DNA of 64,000 nt from an uncultured Candidatus Binatia bacterium (GTDB lineage Bacteria; Desulfobacterota; Binatia; UBA9968; CAXXLF01): positions 2,279,369-2,343,368 of the forward strand of contig OZ244621.1 of the NCBI GenBank assembly GCA_965218425.1, given 5' to 3'. Positions 1 through 11,854 of the stretch are shown here, piece after piece; positions within the stretch are counted from its first letter, which is position 1; each line of letters starts with the position of its first letter. The position numbers and the translations under genes were made by a program. A model generated the notes under the pieces. It saw only the letters and a program-made list of their open reading frames with translations, ran no database searches and was not told the DNA's origin.

Positions 1-42
1 CATGACAAGTACGACGATCTCTACAAGAAGCTCGCGAAGTGA
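1..42 (+). CDS. 3' end of a putative Phd/YefM-like antitoxin gene (partial, runs off the window start)
   Basis: Frame 1 reads ...HDKYDDLYKKLAK* and stops at 40-42; ATGA overlap with the downstream doc start at 39, typical antitoxin-toxin coupling. Identity as antitoxin is by position only. Confidence 0.35.
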   Translation, partial: HDKYDDLYKKLAK

Positions 43-416
43 CGGACTACCTCACGCCGGTGGAAGTTCTCGCCATTCACGCGGATCAGATCGAGCGGTA
101 CGGGGGGTCGCCCGGCGTCCGGGACCCTGGTCTTTTGGAGGCGGCGCTCTATCGGCCGCAAACCGGCTACTACGCCGATCTCGTTGAGGAAGCCGCTGCG
201 CTGTGGGAGAGTCTGGCCCAAAACCATCCGTTCATCGACGGTAACAAGCGCACGGCCTTTGCCGCGACGTACACGTTTCTGGCGATCAACGGCGCACAAC
301 TCACGGTCGACGCCGGTGAGGCCTACGCCTTCATTTCCGGACTGTACGAAGCAGGAACGTTCCGCTTTGACAATTTGGAACCGTGGCTGCGGCGCAGCGT
401 CAAGGTTGGCGCGTAA
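39..416 (+). CDS. doc: Doc (death-on-curing) / Fic-family type II toxin
   Basis: 125 aa; HxFxDGNKR Fic/Doc motif (NHPFIDGNKRTAF); size and sequence typical of Doc toxins. Confidence 0.85.
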   Translation: MTDYLTPVEVLAIHADQIERYGGSPGVRDPGLLEAALYRPQTGYYADLVEEAAALWESLAQNHPFIDGNKRTAFAATYTFLAINGAQLTVDAGEAYAFISGLYEAGTFRFDNLEPWLRRSVKVGA

Positions 417-741
417 ACAAAACAAGACGGGCCGCACGTCTATACTTGACGCGTCGTCAAGCATTTCTATGTTTTATCAATATCTTCCATCTCTTCAAAG
501 GAACTCGTTTTGCAGGAAAACAAGCTAATATGCTGAAAATGCCTTTGAATGCCTTTTTCTTAGCTATACTAATCTACTTGTTCTTCTAATTGTTCTTACT
601 GATTCAATGATCCGGGTAAATCTGCGGTTAAGGCTCTTTACGCCTTTAGTGTCTCGGCGCGAAAAACTTTGTGGACCGGTGTTGTTGAGGATTCCATGGG
701 TTAAGATCCAACAGGTCAGGGGAGCAGTGAATTTTTCCGGT

Positions 742-1785
742 TTATTTCTTGGCAGTGAAGATCAGGGTCTTCGGGTAATGGTCCACCCAACCGAACCAGA
801 AGGAGGGGGTGACAGGTACGGCCTCCAACCTTTGACCTTTCATTTGACCCTGAACGGCCTTTCCCGTTAGCCCATTCCACACGGAGCCGGTTGTGTCGTC
901 GGTAAGAAAGGTGCCTTTGTAGTTTTCCGGCTGCGTCTTCTTGAATGTAAGAACCCGGTCTTTCACCTGGCGTTTAAACACCATCCCCGTCGCGCTGTCC
1001 TTTTCGAAGACCGCAAGAATTGGGATCCCTTGGAATACGTCATTGACCACCGGCTGCTTGCTCAGGACGGAATAGGGGTAAGCCTTCGCTTTTCCATCGA
1101 TCACTAATCCAAGTACGTATTCTTTGGGATAGACCCTCTTATCAGACAAGCGAGTGGGAATAATCCCCGTGTCTGCGGAACTATAGTATGATTCGTAAGG
1201 GTCCCGTCCCAAGCTGAGGGGAAAAGGCCGTCCACTGGTTAAAACCTTGGAGTCCGGGTAGAGTCCCATCCAGGTCCCCCAACGAGTAAACGTGGATTCC
1301 ATGGGTTTGAGCTTGTTCCCGTCCATTGGGCCTTTGACCGCCGCTCCCACCAGGTGGCTCCAGAGGCTGTCCGTTTGGTGGTCGTACATTATCAGAGAAT
1401 TGGCATGGAGTTTCCCTGAGACCCCAAAGGTCAACTCCTTGTCTGCGATTCTACGGTCATACACGATGGCCGTATAACAGAGGGGTCACCAGGTGACCGC
1501 GATGGGTATGCCGCCAACTTTGTCGTTGACGATTTCAACCCGGCTCAGTGTGGCTACGGGGTAGGCGCGACTGTCCCCATTGATTTCCACACCGATGACG
1601 GATTCGTCCGCCTTGAGCCATTGGGCACTTTTGCCGTCCTGGAACTCGGGGGAGAGGATGGCCGCAATGGCATCCTTGGCCAGGACGGTAATAATCTCAT
1701 TCGGACGAAGGTCTGCCGCATGAGAATGATTTGGCAGGAATAGTAAGACCAACAGGATCAGCCATAGGGGAAGACAGTATTTCAA
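742..1785 (-). CDS. DUF3179-family secreted protein with in-frame TGA (candidate selenocysteine, W-U-P-L-C; alternatively a pseudogene)
   Basis: Two adjacent minus-strand ORFs (1486..1908 and 742..1464) are in the SAME frame separated only by TGA at 1483-1485 (...IAVTW-TGA-PLCYTAIVYDRR...). N-terminus has a signal peptide from a TTG start at 1785 (MKYCLPLWLILLVLLFLPNHSHA). An ATG at 1908 is an alternative start. Confidence 0.55.
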
Positions 1786-1798
1786 TGGGCCCTCTTGT

Positions 1799-2644
1799 TT
1801 AGCTCTGGATAGGTTTGGAAGCGGACCGGGCGAGGTGCAGGAGCTCCTGGATGGGTCTCTTGGAAACCAGAAGGCAGATTCGTTCTCCCATGCGGTGCAT
1901 GACCCCATTTATCCCATCGTTGGAGAAAGTATAAAAACTGACCTTTCTCTCCGGATCAAAGAGCCTGCGGGCTTGTGGTGGAGCGTCTTGTTCCGTGCCG
2001 AGAAAGGTAAAACAACTGACAGAAGGACCGGTGCCCTCGTACACGGCAATGAGGATATCGCGATTGCCGACTTCTTTGACCGTGCCGCCGACGGCCTTTA
2101 ATCCCGCGGAGGATAGATCATAACCCATTGGCGCGAATTTGCCCTCCATGGCCTGGTGCAATTGGTTTTTAATTGCTGATGGGCTTTCGGCTCGGACAAA
2201 GGAAAGGTCGCCTGAAGCAATCTGTGCATGCGCCTCTATGGCTGCCAGAGGCATAGGCTGACCGGTCGGCCAGGTCAGGTAAAATAAAGGGACGAGCAGT
2301 AAAATCAGTGCGGCCGATGCAAAGGCGGGGCGGGTGATGAAATTGGGTGTCCGGGAGAACCCTTTACAACCTTGGGTTGGTTCGGTGGCCTGAGGTGAGA
2401 TATGGTGATCCGCGAGGATCTTTGCTCTGAGATCGGAGGGGGCGGACACTTTGGCGCCGATGGAAAAGAGCTGTTTTTTGAGCTCCTTTTCCTGCTCAAA
2501 TACGGTTTGACAGTTCACGCAATTTTTTAGATGGCTCTCTATGGCCTGTCGCTCGAGGTCATTTAGTTCGCTATCCGCTAGAGCGGTTATAAGCTCCTCG
2601 GCCTCTTTACAAGTCATTTCCGTTACTTTCCTTCCTCCATGCAC
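1799..2644 (-). CDS. anti-sigma factor (zinc-finger HxxxCxxC N-terminal domain, one TM segment, periplasmic C-terminal domain)
   Basis: N-terminal ...MTCKEAEELITALADSELNDLERQAIESHLKNCVNCQ (putative zinc-finger anti-sigma motif), central hydrophobic segment. Likely true start at the internal Met near 2617. Confidence 0.6.
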   Translation of the reverse strand: MHGGRKVTEMTCKEAEELITALADSELNDLERQAIESHLKNCVNCQTVFEQEKELKKQLFSIGAKVSAPSDLRAKILADHHISPQATEPTQGCKGFSRTPNFITRPAFASAALILLLVPLFYLTWPTGQPMPLAAIEAHAQIASGDLSFVRAESPSAIKNQLHQAMEGKFAPMGYDLSSAGLKAVGGTVKEVGNRDILIAVYEGTGPSVSCFTFLGTEQDAPPQARRLFDPERKVSFYTFSNDGINGVMHRMGERICLLVSKRPIQELLHLARSASKPIQS

Positions 2645-2834: not shown

Positions 2835-4205
2835 ATGACCACGAAATACGATGCCATCGTTATCGGTACAGGCCAGTCGGGCCCTTCCCTGGCCGCGCGG
2901 ATGGCGGGTGAAGGAATGAAAGTTGCCATCATTGAACGCAAGTCGTTTGGTGGCACCTGCGTTAATACCGGTTGAATACCCACCAAGACCCTGGTGGCCA
3001 GTGCCCATGCCGCTCACATTGCAAGGCGTGGGGCTGAATACGGGGTGATGATCGGCGGGCCGGTCACCGTGGATATGAAAAAGGTCAAGGAGCGTAAGGA
3101 CAAGGCGGTGCAGCGGTCCAATCAGGGAGTGGGCAATTGGGTCAAGAACCTGAAGAACGCTAAGGTTTACGAAGACCACGGGCGGTTCGAGGGACCCCAC
3201 GCGGTGCGTGTGGGAGGGGAGCTCATAGAGGCGGATAAGATTTTCATCAATGTCGGCGCGCGCGCGTCGGTAATGGACCTCCCTGGGGTAAATTACTTCA
3301 CCAATTCGAGCATCATGGAGGTGGATTTTCTCCCAAAGCACCTGATCGTGGTCGGCGGAAGCTACATCGGCCTGGAGTTTGGTCAGATGTACAGACGCTT
3401 CGGCAGCGAAGTGACCATCGTGGACCGTGGGCCTCGGTTGACCCAGCAGGATGATGAGGACACTTCCCTGGCGATCAAGGAGATTTTGGAAGCGGAGGGG
3501 GTGAACGTTCGGCTCGAAGCTGAATGTATTTCTGCTGCGCAAAAGGGCGATCAGATCACCGTCAATTTGGACTGCAAAACCGGAGGTAAGGAGGTAACGG
3601 GTACCCACCTGCTGCTCGCCATCGGACGGCGTCCCAACACGGACGACCTGGGCATAGATAAAGCAGGCCTCGAAGTGGATCGGCGGGGGTACATCAAGGT
3701 GGACGATCGGCTTCAGACCAACGTGCCTGGAGTTTGGGCCATTGGGGACTGCAATGGCAAGGGAGCCTTCACCCACACCTCGTATAACGACTATGAAATT
3801 GTTGCGGCCAATCTGTTCGACGACGACCCACGCCGGGTCAGCGACCGAATTTTAACCTATGGGATGTTTATCGATCCGCCCCTCGGACGCGCGGGAATGA
3901 TCGAAGATGCAGTGAAAAAATCAGGCCGCAAAGCGTTGATAGCAAAGAGGCCCATGACTCGTGTGGCGCGCGCCGTGGAGAAAGGCGAGACACAGGGATT
4001 TATGAAGATCTTGGTGGATGCCGAAACCAAAGAGATCCTCGGGGCCGCCGTCCTTGGTGTTGGTGGCGATGAAATCATTCATTCCATCCTGGATGTGATG
4101 TACGCCAAGGCGCCCTGCACGGTTATTCAGCGGGCTGTCCACGCCCACCCAACGGTGTCGGAGCTGATACCCACCATGCTGGGGGACCTGAAGCCGCTGG
4201 AGTGA
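2835..4205 (+). CDS. FAD/NAD(P)-dependent pyridine nucleotide-disulfide oxidoreductase (mercuric reductase / RclA-like class I) with selenocysteine at the redox-active site (GGTCVNTG-U-IPTK)
   Basis: ATG 2835 preceded by AGGGGAG RBS. GxGxxG FAD motif (VIGTGQSG). In-frame TGA at 2973-2975 sits exactly where the second Cys of the conserved CVNxGCIPSK disulfide motif is expected, and the frame continues uninterrupted to 4205 with a second Rossmann motif and the C-terminal HAHPTxSE dimerisation signature. A 7-bp hairpin lies at 2979-2998, just 3' of the TGA. Confidence 0.8.
2979..2998 (+). promoter_or_regulatory. hairpin immediately 3' of the Sec-TGA of the oxidoreductase (candidate bacterial SECIS core)
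   Basis: CCCACCA-AGACCC-TGGTGGG-like 7-bp stem / 6-nt loop at 2979-2998. Confidence 0.4.
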
Positions 4206-4359: not shown

Positions 4360-4950
4360 TCATTCTCGCTTTTTCCCGCCTTGTTTAACCTCTTCCACCA
4401 TGTAGCATCGTAGGTATTGGTGAAGGTATTTTCTACCCCGGGAAAGTCTGGAGCGAATGGTTCCCAAGGGGCATGAGAGCACCTCCGAGGCCTCTGCATA
4501 TGAAAGCTCTCCCATGTCCACCAGTACAATGGGCGCTCTAAATTCTTCAGGGATTTTGGTCAGGGCCTCATTGACCTTGACGCTCAATTCTTTAGTGTAG
4601 ACATTGTCTTCCGGCCCTGGCTCCGGTCCCGGAAGCGTCTCCCAATAATCTAAGCCCTCTTCGTCCCAGAGACCCCGTCCTTCCACGGCCGCCCATCTTC
4701 TCTTCCTGTGGTGGTGATCGAGAAAAAAGTTATAGAGGATCCGACTCAGCCACGCCTTCAGGTTGGTTCCAGGGGTGAACTGTTCGAATGAATCAAGGGC
4801 ACGTAGATAGGCTTCTTGGACAAGGTCTTGAGCTTCCTGAGGGTCCCTCGATAGGTGTAGGGCAACTCGATAAAGGTGATCGAGGTGTTGCAGCGCCTCT
4901 TGGGCGAAGCGCTCTCTCCCGGCTTTGGTGTTTTTGCCCCTCCGTATCAC
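4360..4950 (-). CDS. ECF (RpoE-like) sigma-70 family sigma factor
   Basis: 196 aa; region 2 (YLRALDSFEQF...AWLSRILYNFFLDHHHRKRR) and region 4 HTH (ELSYAEASEVLSCPLGTIRSRLSRGR). Confidence 0.85.
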   Translation of the reverse strand: MIRRGKNTKAGRERFAQEALQHLDHLYRVALHLSRDPQEAQDLVQEAYLRALDSFEQFTPGTNLKAWLSRILYNFFLDHHHRKRRWAAVEGRGLWDEEGLDYWETLPGPEPGPEDNVYTKELSVKVNEALTKIPEEFRAPIVLVDMGELSYAEASEVLSCPLGTIRSRLSRGRKYLHQYLRCYMVEEVKQGGKKRE

Positions 4951-5310: not shown

Positions 5311-6273
5311 ATGCAGAGCTTCGCTGAGAAAATAAGACAAAGCGGCGACAGCTTCCTCAAGCGCAAGGTGGAAACCCTGCAGGTTAACATGGGGAAGTAC
5401 TGCAACCAGGCATGCCTGCACTGTCACGTGGAGGCGGGACCCACCCGGAAGGAAATCATGACTCTGGAAACGGTAGAGTCGGTGCTCCGTTTCCTCGAGA
5501 AGTCCGATGTGCCCACAGTGGACATCACGGGGGGCGCGCCGGAGCTCAACCCGCATTTCGACTACCTCGTGGAGCGCAGCGTCCAGCTTGGCCGCCACGT
5601 GATGGACCGATGCAATCTCACCGTCATCTTTGAACAGGGGAAGGAGTATCTCCCGGACTTCTTTCAAAAAAACCGGGTGGAGCTGATCTGCTCTCTTCCC
5701 TGCTACACAGAGGGGAACGTAGACCAACAGAGGGGCAAAGGGACCTTCAATCTGAGTATCCGGGCGCTGCGGCTTCTGAACGGCCTGGGATATGGAGTCG
5801 AAGGCACGGGTCTGGAGCTGCAATTGGTCTATAACCCGGTGGGGGCTTACCTTCCGTCGCCCCAGGAACGATTGGAACAGGACTATAAGACTATCCTCAA
5901 GGAAGAATACGGCATCGTTTTTAACCATCTCTACTGTCTTACCAATGTGCCCATCACTCGATTTGAGACCTTTCTGAAGGTGCGAAACGAGTATGACCGG
6001 TATATGGAGCTGATCCAGTCCGCGTTCAACCCGGATACCGTGGACAAGGTCATGTGCAGAAACATCTTGAGCGTAGGATGGGAGGGGTCCGTTTACGACT
6101 GTGACTTCAATCAGATGCTGGAGCTGCCGGTCTCGAACCGACAGGGTAAGCCGCTAAAGATCCAGGACCTCCATGCCGATGGCCTGGAAAATCAATCAAT
6201 CGTGGTCGGAAATCACTGCTACGCCTGTACGGCGGGAGCCGGGAGTAGCTGCGGCGGTTCATTAATAGCGTAA
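5311..6273 (+). CDS. arsS: arsenosugar-biosynthesis radical SAM (seleno)protein ArsS family, Cys form
   Basis: CNQACLHCHVEAGP radical-SAM cluster motif, DITGGAPELNP, CDFNQMLEL, and the family-specific C-terminal HCYACTAGAGSSCGG tail. No in-frame TGA here. Confidence 0.8.
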   Translation: MQSFAEKIRQSGDSFLKRKVETLQVNMGKYCNQACLHCHVEAGPTRKEIMTLETVESVLRFLEKSDVPTVDITGGAPELNPHFDYLVERSVQLGRHVMDRCNLTVIFEQGKEYLPDFFQKNRVELICSLPCYTEGNVDQQRGKGTFNLSIRALRLLNGLGYGVEGTGLELQLVYNPVGAYLPSPQERLEQDYKTILKEEYGIVFNHLYCLTNVPITRFETFLKVRNEYDRYMELIQSAFNPDTVDKVMCRNILSVGWEGSVYDCDFNQMLELPVSNRQGKPLKIQDLHADGLENQSIVVGNHCYACTAGAGSSCGGSLIA

Positions 6274-6275
6274 CC

Positions 6276-6345
6276 GCCGCTTTGCGCTGATGGTAAAACG
6301 CAAAGCGCATGGCGCTATACGCAAAGCGTCTTTTCAGTGACGGGT
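6276..6345 (+). terminator. hairpin-rich putative terminator / repeat element downstream of arsS
   Basis: CCGCTTTGCGC...GCGCAAAGCG inverted repeats (two nested stem-loops) followed by TCTTTTC. Confidence 0.4.
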
Positions 6346-6652
6346 TACGAGTACCGAGTGGAAATTGAGGGTGGGTCAAGGGTGTAGTGAAGTCCGCACT
6401 GTCAACCCTCCACTCCCTAACCTGACCCTTAAACACTTTCCACCGGCTACACCGTTTTCTGCTTACTGCGATCTTCATACGGTTTTCTTTGGCGTCTTGG
6501 CGCGAAAAACTCTTTTGAATTCGTTCTTTTAAAGAATTGATGGGTAGAATTCTAACGGCAAGGCGGGGCCGTGCAGGTCAGGCAGTGAGATTGAGGCGCC
6601 TAGACCCGGCCCCCCACAGGACCCGCAATTCGTTTGGGTTTTGCTCAGCTAG

Positions 6653-6847
6653 ATGGTAAATTACCCCATGGCTGATACATTCCTAAAGCGCAAGAAGGAG
6701 CAGGATCGGCAGAAAAAAAAGAGGGAAAAAGAGGCCATGCGACAGGACCGTAAAGCGGAAAAAGCGAATCGTAGGCCCCTGACTCCAGGCGAAGACCCTG
6801 ACATCGCGGGGATCAAGCCCGGCCCTCAACCGCCGATCGACTGGTAA
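6653..6847 (+). CDS. small highly basic hypothetical protein (64 aa, Lys/Arg/Glu-rich)
   Basis: ORF only; composition resembles small nucleic-acid-binding proteins; no recognisable family. Confidence 0.25.
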   Translation: MVNYPMADTFLKRKKEQDRQKKKREKEAMRQDRKAEKANRRPLTPGEDPDIAGIKPGPQPPIDW

Positions 6848-7012
6848 TCCGCCCCTTCACGAGCAACCTGACGTCCTTCCGCATTCACCCCTTGGACCAG
6901 AGGCCAAGTGCCGTCCTCTTTCAGCCTTATGAAAGACTTTTGCATGTCTCCGAACCCGGCGTTCTTTACCGCTCTCTGCCGGCAATCGTTGATCCGAATC
7001 GCTAAACGCGAA

Positions 7013-8317
7013 TCAGGCGCTATCCTCTGCTTTACTCTGCTTCCGATCCGACTCCAGTGACGCCAGCGCCTCCTTTACCAGCTTGCGCCGTAATTCTTTC
7101 TCTTCCTCGCCCGTCAGGTTTGCCGCGCCGGTGACGTGGACTATGCCGTTGCCCAAAACGACGCGGTTGGAACCGACCATCTTTGCAATGGGCATGGCCG
7201 AGGTAATCTGGACCACCGGGATGCCCGCCTTTTCCAGCTCGGTTGATATCGCAGCTCCGCTGCGAGTGCTCGTTCCTCAGGTGGAGGTGAGGATGACGGC
7301 GTCGACCTCCTCCCGCTTCACTTTTTCGGCCATCTCCCTGCCCAGGCGCCGCGTGTTCGAGAGCGGGTTCGATAGACCAGATGTGGAGATGAACTCGTGG
7401 TGGAGTTTTCCGATCCTGCCGCTTCTTTCCATCTCGCGCATGGCGTCGAGGGGCACGAGACGGTCCGGATCCTGTTGAACGAATCTCGGATCATAGCCGC
7501 CGTGAGAGATCTCGTAGTCCTCCCCCCTGAGATCATCCCGGCCGTCGATGCTATAGGAGCCCCACCGGGTGGCGGCTTGTCCTTCGATTTTGTCCGGGTT
7601 GCCCTTCGGAACGAGGCCGCCGTCGGTGATGAGCATGACCTTGGCCTTCGAAAGATCCCCCACGGCGGAGGGCATGGGAACCGGTTTAAAGGAAGTCGGC
7701 AACATCTCAGACTCGAAGGGCTCTCCTTTCACTTTCGTCAGGAGCATATCAACGAGCCGGACGGCGGCCGTCCGATCCGCCAGTTGATCGCGCAGGATAC
7801 CCCGGGAAAGGTAGCCTTCCTCTGCGGGCAGCCCGATGGACTTACCGTGGACGAGCTTTCCTCCCAGACGCGCCATTTTGGTTAGGACTTGCCGCATCTT
7901 GGCGGGGCTCGCACCCGAATTCACGATATAGAGCGCTTCCCGGTTGAGATCCGCCCCCGGGTTCTCGCTGCCCATCCCGGTAACGACGGGAATCCCCAGG
8001 TTGGACTGAACGGCGGCGCAGAGGGACCCCGCCGCCATCCCATATCGACCCGCTTCGAAGCAAGGACCGGCAACGAACAGCTCTGCACCCGCCTCCCGGA
8101 CCTTTGCCAGCACCGCGGCCGTCAACTCCTCCTGGTGTTCCACGGCATGGTTGTCTCCGGAAATGAGGGTCATAACCACACGTGAGCCATCGCCCAGCAG
8201 TTGTTCCAACAGCCTCCCCGGTCCTACGGCCCCCTCACGCGCCTCAAGGGGCATGCCCGCCTGCTCCTCTCCCCCGACTCCGCCGAAAAACTGATTCAAA
8301 TAGTGTACGATTCGCAT
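7013..8317 (-). CDS. grdB: glycine/sarcosine/betaine reductase component B selenoprotein (GrdB family) with in-frame Sec codon
   Basis: N-terminus MRIVHYLNQFFGGVGGEE...GPCFEAGRYG...GIPVVTGM matches GrdB. ORF 7277..8317 ends in TGA (7277-7279) in context EEVDAVILTST-U-GTSTRSGA, and the 67-aa ORF 7013..7216 is its in-frame continuation (...IPVVQITSAMPIA...EEEKELRRKLVKEAL). Confidence 0.85.
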
Positions 8318-8350
8318 TTTTTGACCCTCCTCACCGGATTCGCGACTGGA

Positions 8351-9631
8351 TCAAGTGACCAAAGCCCGCATTCTCGAGGCTCCCTGTTGATTGGTGACGC
8401 CGGCAACGTTCGCAGCGGCGACCTTCGTCGGTCCGGCCAACACCCTCCTCAACTCCGGGGTCGCGGCGATGATCCGATCCACCGGTGCCAACGTGTAATT
8501 CGTTCCGTTTCCGCCGTTGTATACGATGGCATTCACCTCCGGAAAGTTGAAGAGCAGAGCCGACTCGACCCGCCTGTCCCTTGCCATGTCCGAGACCATG
8601 ACAGTGGTTTTTATGCCCATACCTTCCAGGAGCCGAGCGGTCTCCGCCAAGTCGGCATGGGGAACACCGCCGCCGTACTTGGTTAGAATGACGGCGTCCG
8701 CTTTCAACGCCCACCTGACCAGATTCGCAGCCGTCCGACAGTTTCGGTCGCGGTCGAAGTTGTCGGAACCGGCAACGGTCGCCACCGTGCCCACGAAGTT
8801 GAGATGCCGCGCATGGTGGCGACCGTAGAGCTCCAGGATCACGGGGTGATTTTGATAGAAGTAGGTTTCCGCGCCGCCGATGGAAGAATGGTACGATGGG
8901 ACGACGGCGCCGTCCAGCCACTCGTCGGGATGAAGCGGGATGGGCAGCATCCCTTCCGTGTTGGCGCCATAGAGAATGGGCTCGTCCACGCCGGGCTTTC
9001 GCTGGCGCGAGAAGATCTGGCCTACATATGCGACCCGGGGAAGCCCCTCGCGTCCCGCCTCCGCGGGACCCGCCGGGTCGAATTGACGGGTGGATGCCGC
9101 AGGCTGACTCGCCGCAATGCGGGCCATATGAACCGAGAGCCTGAGACCGGCCCGACGATACGCTTTTCCGATGCTTTGAGCGGGCAACTCCGAACGCGTA
9201 CGGGGAATCGCCACCAGGTGGTGCAACGAGGAGTAATTGCTGCCTTCAGCGGCTGCCCCGCTCATCTCCAATACCCGGCCCGTCACGCCCCTGGACTCTC
9301 CCGGAGACCTCTCCGCCAGAACGGTGACGACGGCTCCTTCGAGCACATGGGTCGTCCCCATGCCCGCCGTTTCCGGCGCACCCAGGATGCCCGGGAAATC
9401 AGGGCTTGAGCCCTCTCCTTTAGCTCTGGGCTCGATGATGTCGAAGACGGGCGCGGCCCGACAACTCTCGCCGGGGCGCACGATTTGGAAATCCACGCCG
9501 GTAAGGGCATCGTCTTCAAGAACCAACCGGCGCAGTTCCTCCGGATCGACGACGAGGACCGAGCCGTCGAGACGGGCCGGTGTTTCCAAGCGGATCTCCG
9601 TGATGGGGTGACATGCCAGGGTCAAACGCAT
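8351..9631 (-). CDS. grdE: glycine reductase component B alpha/beta proprotein (GrdE family)
   Basis: MRLTLACHPITEIRLE...IVRPGESCRAAPVFDIIEPR... matches GrdE N-terminus; ~425 aa; internal N-C pair (DRDRNCR) as possible pyruvoyl-forming self-cleavage site. Confidence 0.75.
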   Translation of the reverse strand: MRLTLACHPITEIRLETPARLDGSVLVVDPEELRRLVLEDDALTGVDFQIVRPGESCRAAPVFDIIEPRAKGEGSSPDFPGILGAPETAGMGTTHVLEGAVVTVLAERSPGESRGVTGRVLEMSGAAAEGSNYSSLHHLVAIPRTRSELPAQSIGKAYRRAGLRLSVHMARIAASQPAASTRQFDPAGPAEAGREGLPRVAYVGQIFSRQRKPGVDEPILYGANTEGMLPIPLHPDEWLDGAVVPSYHSSIGGAETYFYQNHPVILELYGRHHARHLNFVGTVATVAGSDNFDRDRNCRTAANLVRWALKADAVILTKYGGGVPHADLAETARLLEGMGIKTTVMVSDMARDRRVESALLFNFPEVNAIVYNGGNGTNYTLAPVDRIIAATPELRRVLAGPTKVAAANVAGVTNQQGASRMRALVT

Positions 9632-9751
9632 TTTTCTTTCCTCTCGTGAAGACCCGGCAAGGGACCGGGAGTCCTCCAGGAGCGAGCGCAATCTCAGACC
9701 GGCTACTGCTCTGCTTATACCTCAAAGCAAGCTTGCCGCCAAGGGTTCAGC

Positions 9752-10219
9752 TTATCCGTCGGCGAGCCCGGAGCGAACCTCCCGCATCGCCGTGGCGATA
9801 GCCTCGGTTTCCACTGCCATCTCGATCAGGCCCACCTCGTCGGCGTAGGTCTCGGGGTCCACCTGCTCCTTGATCTCGGGCTCGGTGATGTGGAAGACGG
9901 GGAGTTTCAAGCCGACGCCGCCGAGCGCTCCCGCCCAGGTCGGATCCCCATCGGTCATGGTCAGGCCGAACAGTTTGCTGCTCTCTGCGGTGGGAGTTCC
10001 GAGAAGGACAACGACACCGGCAGTCCCCGTGGCGTCTACCTTCCGTTTGATTTCTTCTTGACCTTCCAGGTCAAGCGCGCCCGACGCCGTTCAGACGAAA
10101 CAGTGGGTGAGTTCAAGGATGACTTCGGCGCCCGCGCTTTTCGCGCAAAGAGCGATGGAGTTGCCTTGAACGCCGTCTCTTTCTCCCAGAACAATGACTT
10201 TCTTCCCGTTCAGCTTCAT
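9752..10219 (-). CDS. grdA: glycine reductase selenoprotein A (GrdA) with in-frame Sec codon
   Basis: ATG at 10219 with GGGGG RBS. Translation MKLNGKKVIVLGERDGVQGNSIALCAKSAGAEVILELTHCFV-U-TASGALDLEGQEE... closely matches GrdA (…TECFVUTAAGAMDLE…). TGA at 10091-10093; 155 codons. Confidence 0.9.
10057..10075 (-). promoter_or_regulatory. hairpin 3' of the grdA Sec-TGA (candidate SECIS)
   Basis: CUUGACC-UGGAA-GGUCAAG perfect 7-bp stem, 16 nt downstream of UGA on the mRNA. Confidence 0.5.
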
Positions 10220-10402: not shown

Positions 10403-11854
10403 TTAGTTTTTCGGGTTACGCTCCAATACAAAGGATAATCCGTCCGCCATCTGAGTCATGCGGCCTAAAAACAGGCTCCCTTTGGCCAAGAACATGGCTC
10501 GATCCATAGCCCCCGACACGATACGGTCCACTGCGTGCCCCAGGAAAGGGATCGCCGAGGCGATATGGCCCTGAGTCGGGGCATAACCGGGCATTCCGTG
10601 TGTTTCCGCAAAACTTGAAATCTCGTTAGGGGCGATCTCTTTGTTCCGCGCCGCCAGGGCGGCGATAAGCCTGTAGTTCGTCAACGGAACGTTGCCGTTT
10701 CCGGACGGTTCCGTCACCTCCGGGTTGTGCAGCTCGGTGGCGTACTTGTCGATATCCCCGAAGCGCAATTTTAGTTTCTGCAGCGGCTCGGCCACCAGTG
10801 AGCCGAAGACGGCCTGCTGGCTCGAGCCGGCACCCACCCGGTGCATACCGACGGAATCCAGCCTTAGCCAAGGATGTTTCCCGTCGTCCCCGGAGACGTG
10901 GATGGCAACTCCCGCCAAAACATCCTCCAAGACCGGTTGTTCGTGTTTGAGATGGCCTTGAAACTTCATCCCGAGTTTCGCCAGAGAGCCGCCCCCGACG
11001 ACCACCACATTGCGGAACACACCCGCGCTCACGAGGCTGCCGGCCAGCAGCAAAGCATGGTTCGGACCCGAGCAAAAGCCTTTGACGTCGACCCCGCTCG
11101 CCATGGAGCACCCGCACATTTCCCCGATGGCCTTCGCCAGGTTTCCTCCGCCGCGCTGGTAACGGTCGCCCACCGCCTCCTCGCCGCTGTTTAGAACATA
11201 ATCAATGGCAGCGGCCTGTGCGCCTTCACCCTTCAGGAGCGTCTTCAGGGCCACTACCGCCGTCGCCTTGCAGGCCAGGTTCTCGAGGAGAATGTCGGGC
11301 GCAAGGGAGCGGTCCTCCCGATCGCCCGGCAGGACGCAGCCCACCAATTGCCCGTCCCGCAGATTGAGGGGGAGCGCGGGCGACGGACCGTCGATCCGAG
11401 CCTCGATGGCGGAGAGCGGCTTGCCGTCGTTGAGGTTCGCGGCTTCCACCTTCCCGAAGAGCGGATGGAGTTCCAACGCCCGCCGCGCCGTCCCGAGAAA
11501 ACCTTCCTCGAGCCAAAGCAGCCCGAAGAGATCGCAGAGCTTCATGACGGCGTAAAACTCCTCTTCCGGCATGAATTCACCATGCCGTTGCCGCCGTTCC
11601 GTATCCTGTCTCACGGCAAACCAGGGCCGTTGGAGGGATTTCAGTTCATCGGGGTAGATGGATCCTAGAAATACCCGGTTCGGCGGATAGGACAAAGCGT
11701 CCTCGAAGGAACGGAGCCGCTCCCGAATTCGTTCGCTTACCGCCGCTTCCCGGACGATTTCACGCGCCGGTTTCGAGCCGTGGGTGACAAGTCCGGGCGT
11801 ATGAGATAAAAAGTAGCGAACGGCCTTGATGACTGGTTGATTTCCCGGGGGCAT
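10403..11854 (-). CDS. grdC: glycine reductase complex component C-like protein (GrdC-like, beta-ketoacyl-synthase-like fold)
   Basis: 483 aa; size and context (immediately upstream of grdA-grdE-grdB) fit GrdC. Assignment GrdC versus GrdD is from size only. Confidence 0.5.
   Translation of the reverse strand: MPPGNQPVIKAVRYFLSHTPGLVTHGSKPAREIVREAAVSERIRERLRSFEDALSYPPNRVFLGSIYPDELKSLQRPWFAVRQDTERRQRHGEFMPEEEFYAVMKLCDLFGLLWLEEGFLGTARRALELHPLFGKVEAANLNDGKPLSAIEARIDGPSPALPLNLRDGQLVGCVLPGDREDRSLAPDILLENLACKATAVVALKTLLKGEGAQAAAIDYVLNSGEEAVGDRYQRGGGNLAKAIGEMCGCSMASGVDVKGFCSGPNHALLLAGSLVSAGVFRNVVVVGGGSLAKLGMKFQGHLKHEQPVLEDVLAGVAIHVSGDDGKHPWLRLDSVGMHRVGAGSSQQAVFGSLVAEPLQKLKLRFGDIDKYATELHNPEVTEPSGNGNVPLTNYRLIAALAARNKEIAPNEISSFAETHGMPGYAPTQGHIASAIPFLGHAVDRIVSGAMDRAMFLAKGSLFLGRMTQMADGLSFVLERNPKN

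Follow-up and report, generated by a model that had tools for sequence, protein, structure and literature searches.

A probable selenocysteine form of a class-I flavoprotein disulfide reductase in Candidatus Binatia and other uncultured bacterial lineages

A stretch of 64,000 nucleotides from an uncultured Candidatus Binatia bacterium (contig OZ244621.1; the whole stretch is called the window here) carries, at positions 2835 to 4205 of the forward strand, a gene for a flavoprotein disulfide reductase whose reading frame contains a TGA codon at the site of an active-site cysteine. The question raised by this locus is whether the TGA is a lesion or a codon for selenocysteine (Sec) and, if the latter, which catalytic residue has been replaced and what the enzyme might do. 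We conclude that the gene very probably encodes a functional selenoprotein in which UGA is recoded, Sec decoding being the best explanation of the sequence comparisons described below. The product is, in all likelihood, a homodimer-type class-I flavoprotein disulfide reductase of the NF004992/PRK06370.1-4 family with the redox pair Cys42-Sec47, a predicted selenenylsulfide. The protein is a Sec variant of a thiol redox enzyme, and what sets it apart is that selenium takes the flavin-proximal place in a class-I CxxxxC centre.

The reading frame and the residue at codon 47

The coding sequence (2835-4205, + strand) is complete and comprises 456 codons, with Sec predicted at codon 47. It runs from an ATG at 2835 to a stop at 4203-4205 that is itself a TGA, and its translation contains a single internal stop, the TGA at 2973-2975, within the peptide GGTCVNTG-*-IPTKTLVAS; no further stops or frameshifts occur over the 456 codons. 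A Shine-Dalgarno sequence, AAGGGGAG (2820-2827, + strand), lies 7 nt before the ATG, and a purine-rich box is kept at this position across orthologue loci. The FAD (flavin adenine dinucleotide)-binding GxGxxG motif, here GTGQSG (residues 11-16; 2865-2882, + strand), is encoded 5' of the TGA, as is Cys42 (TGC, 2958-2960, + strand), by homology the interchange thiol, a role taken from PMC8358701. A second Rossmann motif, GGSYIG, begins at residue 174, and the sequence HAHPTVSE (residues 436-443; 4140-4163, + strand), which holds the His-Glu acid/base dyad of the dimerisation domain, aligns with the HPT..E of the Thermus thermophilus E3 component, RclA and Escherichia coli glutathione reductase (GR). 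Pfam matches span the protein from end to end (Pyr_redox_2 at 5-316, Pyr_redox at 169-242 and Pyr_redox_dim at 344-448). Cys42 and Sec47 aside, conserved Cys residues are absent, and the protein ends without a C-terminal redox tail.

Which of the two active-site cysteines has been replaced was determined by alignment. The TGA column coincides with the second Cys of CLNVGC in the Thermus E3 component (2eq6) and of CINIGC in RclA (6kgy), and an alignment to E. coli GR is collinear and ungapped through residue 50, so that the GR motif CVNVGC likewise lines up column for column with C42-VNTG-U47 and Sec47 falls on GR Cys47. These alignments bear out the claim of an earlier note on this DNA that the TGA lies on the second Cys of the CxxxxC pair, and they correct its description of that residue as the interchange Cys. 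In 2-KPCC the interchange Cys is C82 and the charge-transfer Cys is C87 (PMC8358701); in SmTGR, C159 is "the most proximal thiol", and its equivalent in E. coli GR, C47, is needed for the FAD-thiolate charge-transfer band (PMC10535113). By homology, then, the codon read as Sec47 (2973-2975, + strand) is that of the FAD-proximal charge-transfer Cys, the C-terminal member of CxxxxC, and the Sec is predicted to adjoin the flavin because Sec47 matches GR Cys47, the flavin-proximal thiol of this enzyme class.

Conservation of the TGA and alternatives to selenocysteine

The in-frame TGA is kept in approximately 30 homologues of the window gene, which we call group A. Their proteins are 60-93% identical to that of the window, and they derive from Candidatus Binatia, SAR324, Acidobacteria, Planctomycetota, Syntrophobacteraceae and unclassified metagenome-assembled genomes. 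One genome per species was scanned with a degenerate DNA pattern for C-V-N-x-G-TGA-[IV]-P-x-K; of the 30 matches, 21 fall in true reductase genes, and 7 of the genomes hold group A. With a family-specific version of the pattern, run over metagenome contigs, 20 of 21 matches were true reductase genes with the same TGA. Public gene calls obscure this conservation, every one seen for a Sec-form reductase being truncated and either unnamed or labelled "E3 component" (IMG). In the databases, the nearest proteins are calls cut short at the N-terminus, 378-403 residues long and 86-100% identical to the window protein, and full-length forms with Cys at this position (Cys forms) first appear among the database matches at 78% identity. 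In all three truncated orthologues that were fetched, we found the same in-frame TGA together with the conserved 46-residue N-terminus.

The region ahead of the TGA also evolves as coding sequence. When 25 homologues were compared with the window, the 44 codons 5' of the TGA showed 475 synonymous and 221 non-synonymous differences and the 44 codons 3' of it 349 and 315, respectively. On the strength of these proportions, the segment before the TGA is under purifying selection, hence translated, and under no less constraint than the segment after it. The earlier note had held that the frame is intact, with its downstream motifs, and is not a dead gene, a view that the conservation of both TGA flanks and the selection upstream uphold. 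The same observations speak to the idea of a pseudogene, in which a TGC-to-TGA nonsense mutation had lately inactivated a Cys-form reductase. Such a gene would lie one base change from the TGC of the Cys homologues and would agree with the truncation of all public gene calls, yet some 30 sequences, drawn from no fewer than five phylum-level lineages and as divergent as stated above, keep an identical TGA, the 456 codons are otherwise free of stops and frameshifts, and both sides are under purifying selection; a pseudogene is almost certainly not the answer. Sequencing error is excluded by the conservation, by the selection and by the neighbouring selenoproteins. Three further selenoprotein genes lie within the same 64 kb, encoding GrdA, a GrdB-like protein and a DUF3179 protein, the first two having already been recognized in the earlier note; a generic scan of the window for in-frame TGA codons was too noisy, the DNA being GC-rich, to extend the list past these three and the reductase gene. 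Recoding here is context-dependent and does not reflect an altered genetic code, since TGA is otherwise a stop in this genome and the reductase gene itself ends in TGA.

Two other accounts were weighed. Gene callers annotate an open reading frame (ORF) of 46 residues followed by one of 403, and the locus could accordingly yield an N-terminal peptide of 46 residues and a separately initiated protein of about 403 residues from the GTG at 2994, the point at which mechanical ORF finding restarts. We give this very little credence. An independent start at this GTG, which the earlier note had named as a possibility to be checked, was found to have no ribosome-binding site of its own, as no Shine-Dalgarno-like sequence precedes it, and public gene callers are inconsistent in the start they choose (378, 385, 395 or 403 residues). 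Moreover, the GTG is the Val codon of the conserved TLVAS, for which only some half of the homologues use GTG and the others GTC or GTT, and a split here would part GxGxxG and Cys42 from the remainder of the Rossmann fold and cut the CxxxxC pair. Near-cognate suppression might instead place a standard amino acid at the UGA, either Cys or Trp. This would be compatible with the unproven status of the SECIS (selenocysteine insertion sequence) in the window, and Cys at position 47 would give a normal enzyme, but we consider it quite improbable: genes dependent on Sec lie nearby, including GrdA, whose family is listed as an experimentally verified Sec user (PMC13188914); canonical, correctly spaced SECIS hairpins are present in sister clades that share the UGA; and an inefficiently read codon at an essential catalytic residue would not be expected to last across phyla when TGC is one mutation away.

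The earlier note had pointed to a hairpin directly 3' of the TGA, and such a hairpin is indeed there. Folding of the 68 nt that begin at 2973 gives -29.6 kcal/mol (z = -2.6), and among 435 windows inside the reductase gene the 60 nt that follow the UGA come 4th in folding. The candidate element, CAGU-G-CCCAUGCC / 13-nt loop / GGCGUGGG-GCUG (2999-3036, + strand), has an 8-bp stem. It is not diagnostic of Sec, however, and a series of observations weighs against it or against Sec decoding. Its apical loop begins approximately 36-41 nt past the UGA, and 36-41 nt is the outer edge of the spacing in published bacterial SECIS search models. Cys-form homologues (n = 3) fold comparably at the same place (z = -1.1, -2.3 and -2.0), and the Cys homologue at locus L056 has essentially the same hairpin (CAGC-GCCCGCG...CGCGGGGCUG); hairpin stability was dropped as evidence for a SECIS, since these controls fold as well. 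RNAalifold found no shared structure, only 3 trivial pairs, across 23 distinct 69-nt stretches from Sec forms. The window-type hairpin is imperfect at L001, L002 and L053, and changes in the stem within the Binatia clade are either wobble-compatible or disruptive, with zero compensatory changes. A tRNA-Sec was not found in the 64-kb window (ARAGORN gave zero tRNAs and Rfam zero matches), and selA, selB and selD were not searched for.

Set against this are the sister Sec clades, in which SECIS-type hairpins of canonical form are, as judged from their sequences, present at the expected spacing and made by clade-specific codon choices. The Acidobacteria clade has the hairpin GGCGCU-GGUCGCG-AGCGCC, with a loop starting 17 nt from the UGA, and the SAR324 clade an 8-bp stem, CYCUGGUG-GCUAG-CGCCAGGG, with the loop GCUAG at +21; the SAR324 stem is enabled by an AGG Arg codon, where the three Cys forms examined have CGY. 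We therefore regard Sec insertion as well supported for the family and the window hairpin at 2999-3036 as a candidate SECIS only.

Family, predicted chemistry and possible substrates

For scoring against family models and Pfam, U47 was entered as C. The window protein passes NF004992 (PRK06370.1-4, "FAD-containing oxidoreductase") with 775.3 bits against a cut-off of 629 and scores 783 bits against the sister model NF004990, under the cut-off of 842. It falls below the cut-offs for dihydrolipoyl dehydrogenase (TIGR01350, 352.9 against 408.8 bits), for glutathione reductase (NF004776, 291 against 480), for mycothione reductase, for RclA (NF040477, 323.7 against 740), for HOSCN-MerA (NF041853, 302.3 against 650), for high-molecular-weight thioredoxin reductase (TrxR; TIGR01438, 145 against 476) and for CoA-disulfide reductase (TIGR03385, 79 against 579). 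The best relatives with solved structures are distant (the Thermus E3 component 2eq6, at 259 bits, and RclA 6kgy). E3 and GR are the best structural and sequence templates, yet the protein is under both equivalog cut-offs, and 2-oxoacid dehydrogenase E1/E2 genes were found in none of the neighbourhoods with Pfam annotation. None of the NF004992 members seen carries a substrate-specific name.

The Cys-form members of NF004992 (e.g. P0005, P0009 and P0010) are 76-78% identical to the window protein and share its length, its domain order, the GGTCVNTG-x-IPTK motif and the HxHPTxSE dyad; they have Cys at residue 47 where the window protein has Sec, so that the CxxxxC feature of class-I reductases takes the form of a Cys/Sec pair (C42-VNTG-U47) in place of Cys/Cys. 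Animal high-molecular-weight TrxR and thioredoxin glutathione reductase (TGR) share the fold, an FAD-adjacent CVNVGC-type centre and a Cys-Sec selenenylsulfide in the electron path (PMC10535113). Their Sec, however, sits in an extra C-terminal centre (C596-U597 in SmTGR, PMC10535113) and their flavin-proximal pair is Cys-Cys, whereas the window reductase is without a C-terminal Gly-Cys-Sec-Gly extension or a second UGA and has Sec in place of the flavin-proximal Cys. RclA, the MerA-type HOSCN reductases and MerA are class-I enzymes with CxxxxC, as is the window protein, and RclA is stress-induced. MerA has a C-terminal Cys pair and usually an N-terminal HMA domain, and the window protein has neither: its C-terminus (...IPTMLGDLKPLE) is free of Cys and the HMA domain is absent in the Pfam search. 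Together with a TIGR02053 score of 309.6 bits against a cut-off of 454, this agrees with the earlier note that the enzyme is not MerA proper. In the TIGR03385-like selenoprotein, Sec presumably takes the place of the flavin-adjacent redox Cys, and we take that subfamily to have a single redox Cys, without a CxxxxC pair and without a His-Glu dyad at the dimer interface. This predicted Sec-containing protein, related to CoA-disulfide reductase and NADH oxidase (motif UGxP, PMC13188914), is likewise a bacterial FAD/NAD(P)H flavoprotein with Sec.

From the chemistry of the family we infer a mechanism in which both FAD binding and reduction by NAD(P)H are predicted. NAD(P)H would reduce the FAD; the flavin C4a would then attack the proximal chalcogen, the selenium of Sec47, and open the Se-S bond, which would leave Cys42 as a free thiol and the selenolate in a charge-transfer state with FAD. 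Helped by the His436-Glu443 dyad of the partner subunit, Cys42 would attack the substrate, and Sec47 would resolve the mixed intermediate with re-formation of the Se-S bond. Asp197 lies at the end of the second Rossmann beta-strand, a position that is acidic in NADH-dependent relatives and Val197 in GR, and gives a weak hint of NADH as the electron donor. Selenium at position 47 should speed both the flavin-to-chalcogen and the resolving steps, because it is the better electrophile and leaving group and is fully ionised. It should also make the redox centre resist irreversible over-oxidation, echoing the finding that mammalian TrxR, which contains selenium, turns over HOSCN while the Sec-free bacterial TrxR is inhibited by it (PMC9335216).

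Our best guess at the substrate is a small-molecule disulfide, selenenylsulfide, diselenide or electrophilic oxidant met in a thiol-stress response, because the gene sits between genes for an extracytoplasmic function (ECF) sigma factor and a zinc anti-sigma factor, beside that for a periplasmic DUF3179 selenoprotein. The clues here are of position only, and two observations count against the guess: neighbourhoods outside Binatia are heterogeneous, and a search for an ECF-type promoter directed at the reductase gene found none, the sole GGAAC-N17-CGTT motif facing the anti-sigma gene. Membership of the reductase in the ECF sigma regulon is thus suggested by location only.

A different function can be drawn from other lineages, namely that the enzyme is dedicated to the metabolism of selenium-containing small molecules and is not a general stress reductase. 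We hold this to be unlikely, and equally so its proposed targets, which would be the diselenides or disulfides of selenoneine, selenosugar or ergothioneine, or the supply of reduced selenium. In two Cys-form loci, L056 (P0010) and L059 (P0036), the reductase gene immediately precedes senA, senB and egtD, and at L008 a SAR324 Sec form immediately precedes senA-/senB-like genes. The selenoneine genes occupy 5672-9001 at L056, where SenA, SenB and EgtD score 518, 412 and 369 bits against cut-offs of 420, 300 and 291, respectively; 6702-10089 at L059; and 2-1883 (- strand) at L008, at the end of that locus. In addition, a paper on the selenoneine pathway describes diselenide intermediates, needed dithiothreitol in its in-vitro work and names no reductase (10.1101/2022.04.13.486033). 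Yet these are 3 loci from 2 lineages among roughly 20 neighbourhoods examined, sen and egt genes were not found in the 64-kb window, and the neighbours elsewhere are NDH2-like proteins, MOSC-ferredoxin reductases or housekeeping genes.

Neighbouring genes, recurrent Sec forms and their meaning

The ECF sigma factor gene (4360-4950, - strand) is convergent with the reductase gene; with 88 bits its product clears the TIGR02937 cut-off of 42.9, and the top-scoring named match is SigH_actino-like. Divergent from the reductase is the zf-HC2 anti-sigma factor gene (1799-2644, - strand), whose product has an HxxxCxxC motif (SHLKNCVNC) and one hydrophobic segment, the Pfam zf-HC2 assignment being recorded on its orthologues. 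The ECF-type promoter motif GGAAC-N17-CGTT (2663-2688, - strand) faces the anti-sigma/DUF3179 operon; it matches in the window, L003 and L053, and L001 has a near-match by eye (AGTT for CGTT). The DUF3179 gene (maximal ORF 742-1908, - strand; Pfam DUF3179) has its TGA at 1486-1488, within AVTW-U-PLC, and belongs to a family listed as a UxxC/T selenoprotein family (PMC13188914). Its product has a signal-peptide-like N-terminus, and the gene appears to be co-transcribed with the anti-sigma gene. At all orthologue loci of the Binatia clade that have gene calls, the TGA divides this ORF.

The sigma/reductase/anti-sigma-DUF3179 order is present at all Binatia-clade loci (the window, L001-L003, L026, L040, L052 and L053). 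The idea of a universally conserved operon was dropped, this context being limited to the Binatia clade, and in other clades the neighbours include DNA ligase, TrkA, RpoC, a HEAT-repeat protein, NDH2-like proteins and MOSC-ferredoxin reductases. An NDH2-like flavoprotein recurs downstream of the reductase at L018, L055 and L057. A 580-residue fusion of MOSC/YiiM, ferredoxin-reductase and 2Fe-2S parts recurs by or near both Sec and Cys forms (L003, 3-449; L046, 3403-4362; L053, 6920-8659; L055, 2205-3947).

Further along the window, on the - strand, lie the genes for GrdA (9752-10219; TGA 10091-10093, CFV-U-TASG), of which public gene calls give a 68-residue fragment only, and for the GrdB-family selenoprotein (7013-8317; TGA 7277-7279, ILTST-U-GTSTRSG), which passes the broad TIGR01918 subfamily model only. 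Typical GrdB has two Cys after Sec, in the arrangement UxxCxxC; in the window protein both of these positions are Ser. Further genes of the Grd region lie at 8351-9691 and 10403-11854 (both - strand), and the neighbouring GrdE-like gene has diverged strongly, with 172 bits where the cut-off is 780. By sequence, the Grd genes suggest a glycine-reductase-like complex in this Binatia-like organism. An ArsS-type radical SAM gene (5311-6273, + strand; TIGR04167, 443 bits against a cut-off of 300) is present in its Cys form, and this family is a selenoprotein in some organisms. With it, the window has five genes of families prone to be selenoproteins within 10 kb.

Sec and Cys forms of the reductase are interleaved. 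In a rough neighbour-joining tree of 17 Sec and 113 Cys forms, which is crude and has a Cys sample biased towards relatives of the window protein, Sec forms fall in several separate places; the Binatia Sec clade is nested among Cys forms, and the Sec form at L018 is sister to the Cys form P0064. No residues were found to co-vary with the Sec/Cys state at position 47. Repeated conversion of Cys to Sec may have been helped by a hairpin already present in Cys-form genes, which could be recruited as a SECIS.

The substitution also occurs in a second subfamily. Group B reductases, RYDLVIIGGGAAG...GGTCVNRG-U-IPKK, carry Sec at the same second-Cys position and are 25-33% identical to the window protein. 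They comprise 14 loci (L004, L005, L009, L013, L015, L021-L025, L027 and L029-L031; for example L013, approximately 6164-6193, - strand) from about 13 species-level genomes, almost all Methylomirabilota/Rokubacteria, and reach no NCBIfam equivalog cut-off, the best being MerA at 346 against 454 bits. Their clean SECIS-type hairpin, (A)GACCUU-GGU-AAGGUC(U) or GGCCYU-GGUN-ARGGCC, has the loop GGU(N) at +17 and shows a compensatory change of U-A to C-G. With regard to the Cys forms of the window family, the 75 nt that follow the TGC aligned with the window TGA at L055-L057 give unusually stable mRNA (z down to -2.3 relative to the gene itself), at the site where a SECIS would be required in Sec forms.

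It is conceivable, though we think it doubtful, that the window family is the missing NAD(P)H-dependent reductase of selenium/sulfur histidine-betaine metabolism, with polyphyletic, hairpin-eased switches from Cys to Sec. Such a role would explain the place of the gene directly upstream of senA-senB in two unrelated lineages and, if true, the Sec forms would provide the first selenolate-flavin charge-transfer centre in a class-I disulfide reductase.

A review of May 2026 tabulates 119 prokaryotic selenoprotein families and subfamilies (PMC13188914). The only FAD-dependent reductases in it are the CoA-disulfide-reductase-like family (TIGR03385, UGxP) and type III sulfide:quinone reductase, its "putative mercuric reductase" is a UxxU metal-binding protein, and none of its 119 families is a Pyr_redox_2/CxxxxU entry. 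Our search of the literature, the coverage of which was incomplete, found no Sec-containing pyridine-nucleotide disulfide oxidoreductase or E3-like prokaryotic selenoprotein. The earlier note had called a Cys-Sec pair in this enzyme class uncommon; that description fits the annotation only, as the Sec form is widespread in uncultured lineages.

Altogether, this analysis adds a selenoprotein family that is lacking in the latest 119-family catalogue (PMC13188914). Because the gene calls are truncated or labelled "E3 component", selenoproteome and redox inventories come out too low for Binatia, SAR324, Acidobacteriota and Methylomirabilota. The enzyme offers a natural test of a selenolate-flavin charge-transfer pair and of an Se-S bond in the glutathione-reductase mechanism, and the occurrence of the same substitution in a second, unrelated reductase subfamily, and several times in the window family, provides a system for the study of Cys/Sec exchange. 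Should the association with selenoneine genes prove real, it would mark out a reduction step of the selenoneine pathway that is still unassigned.

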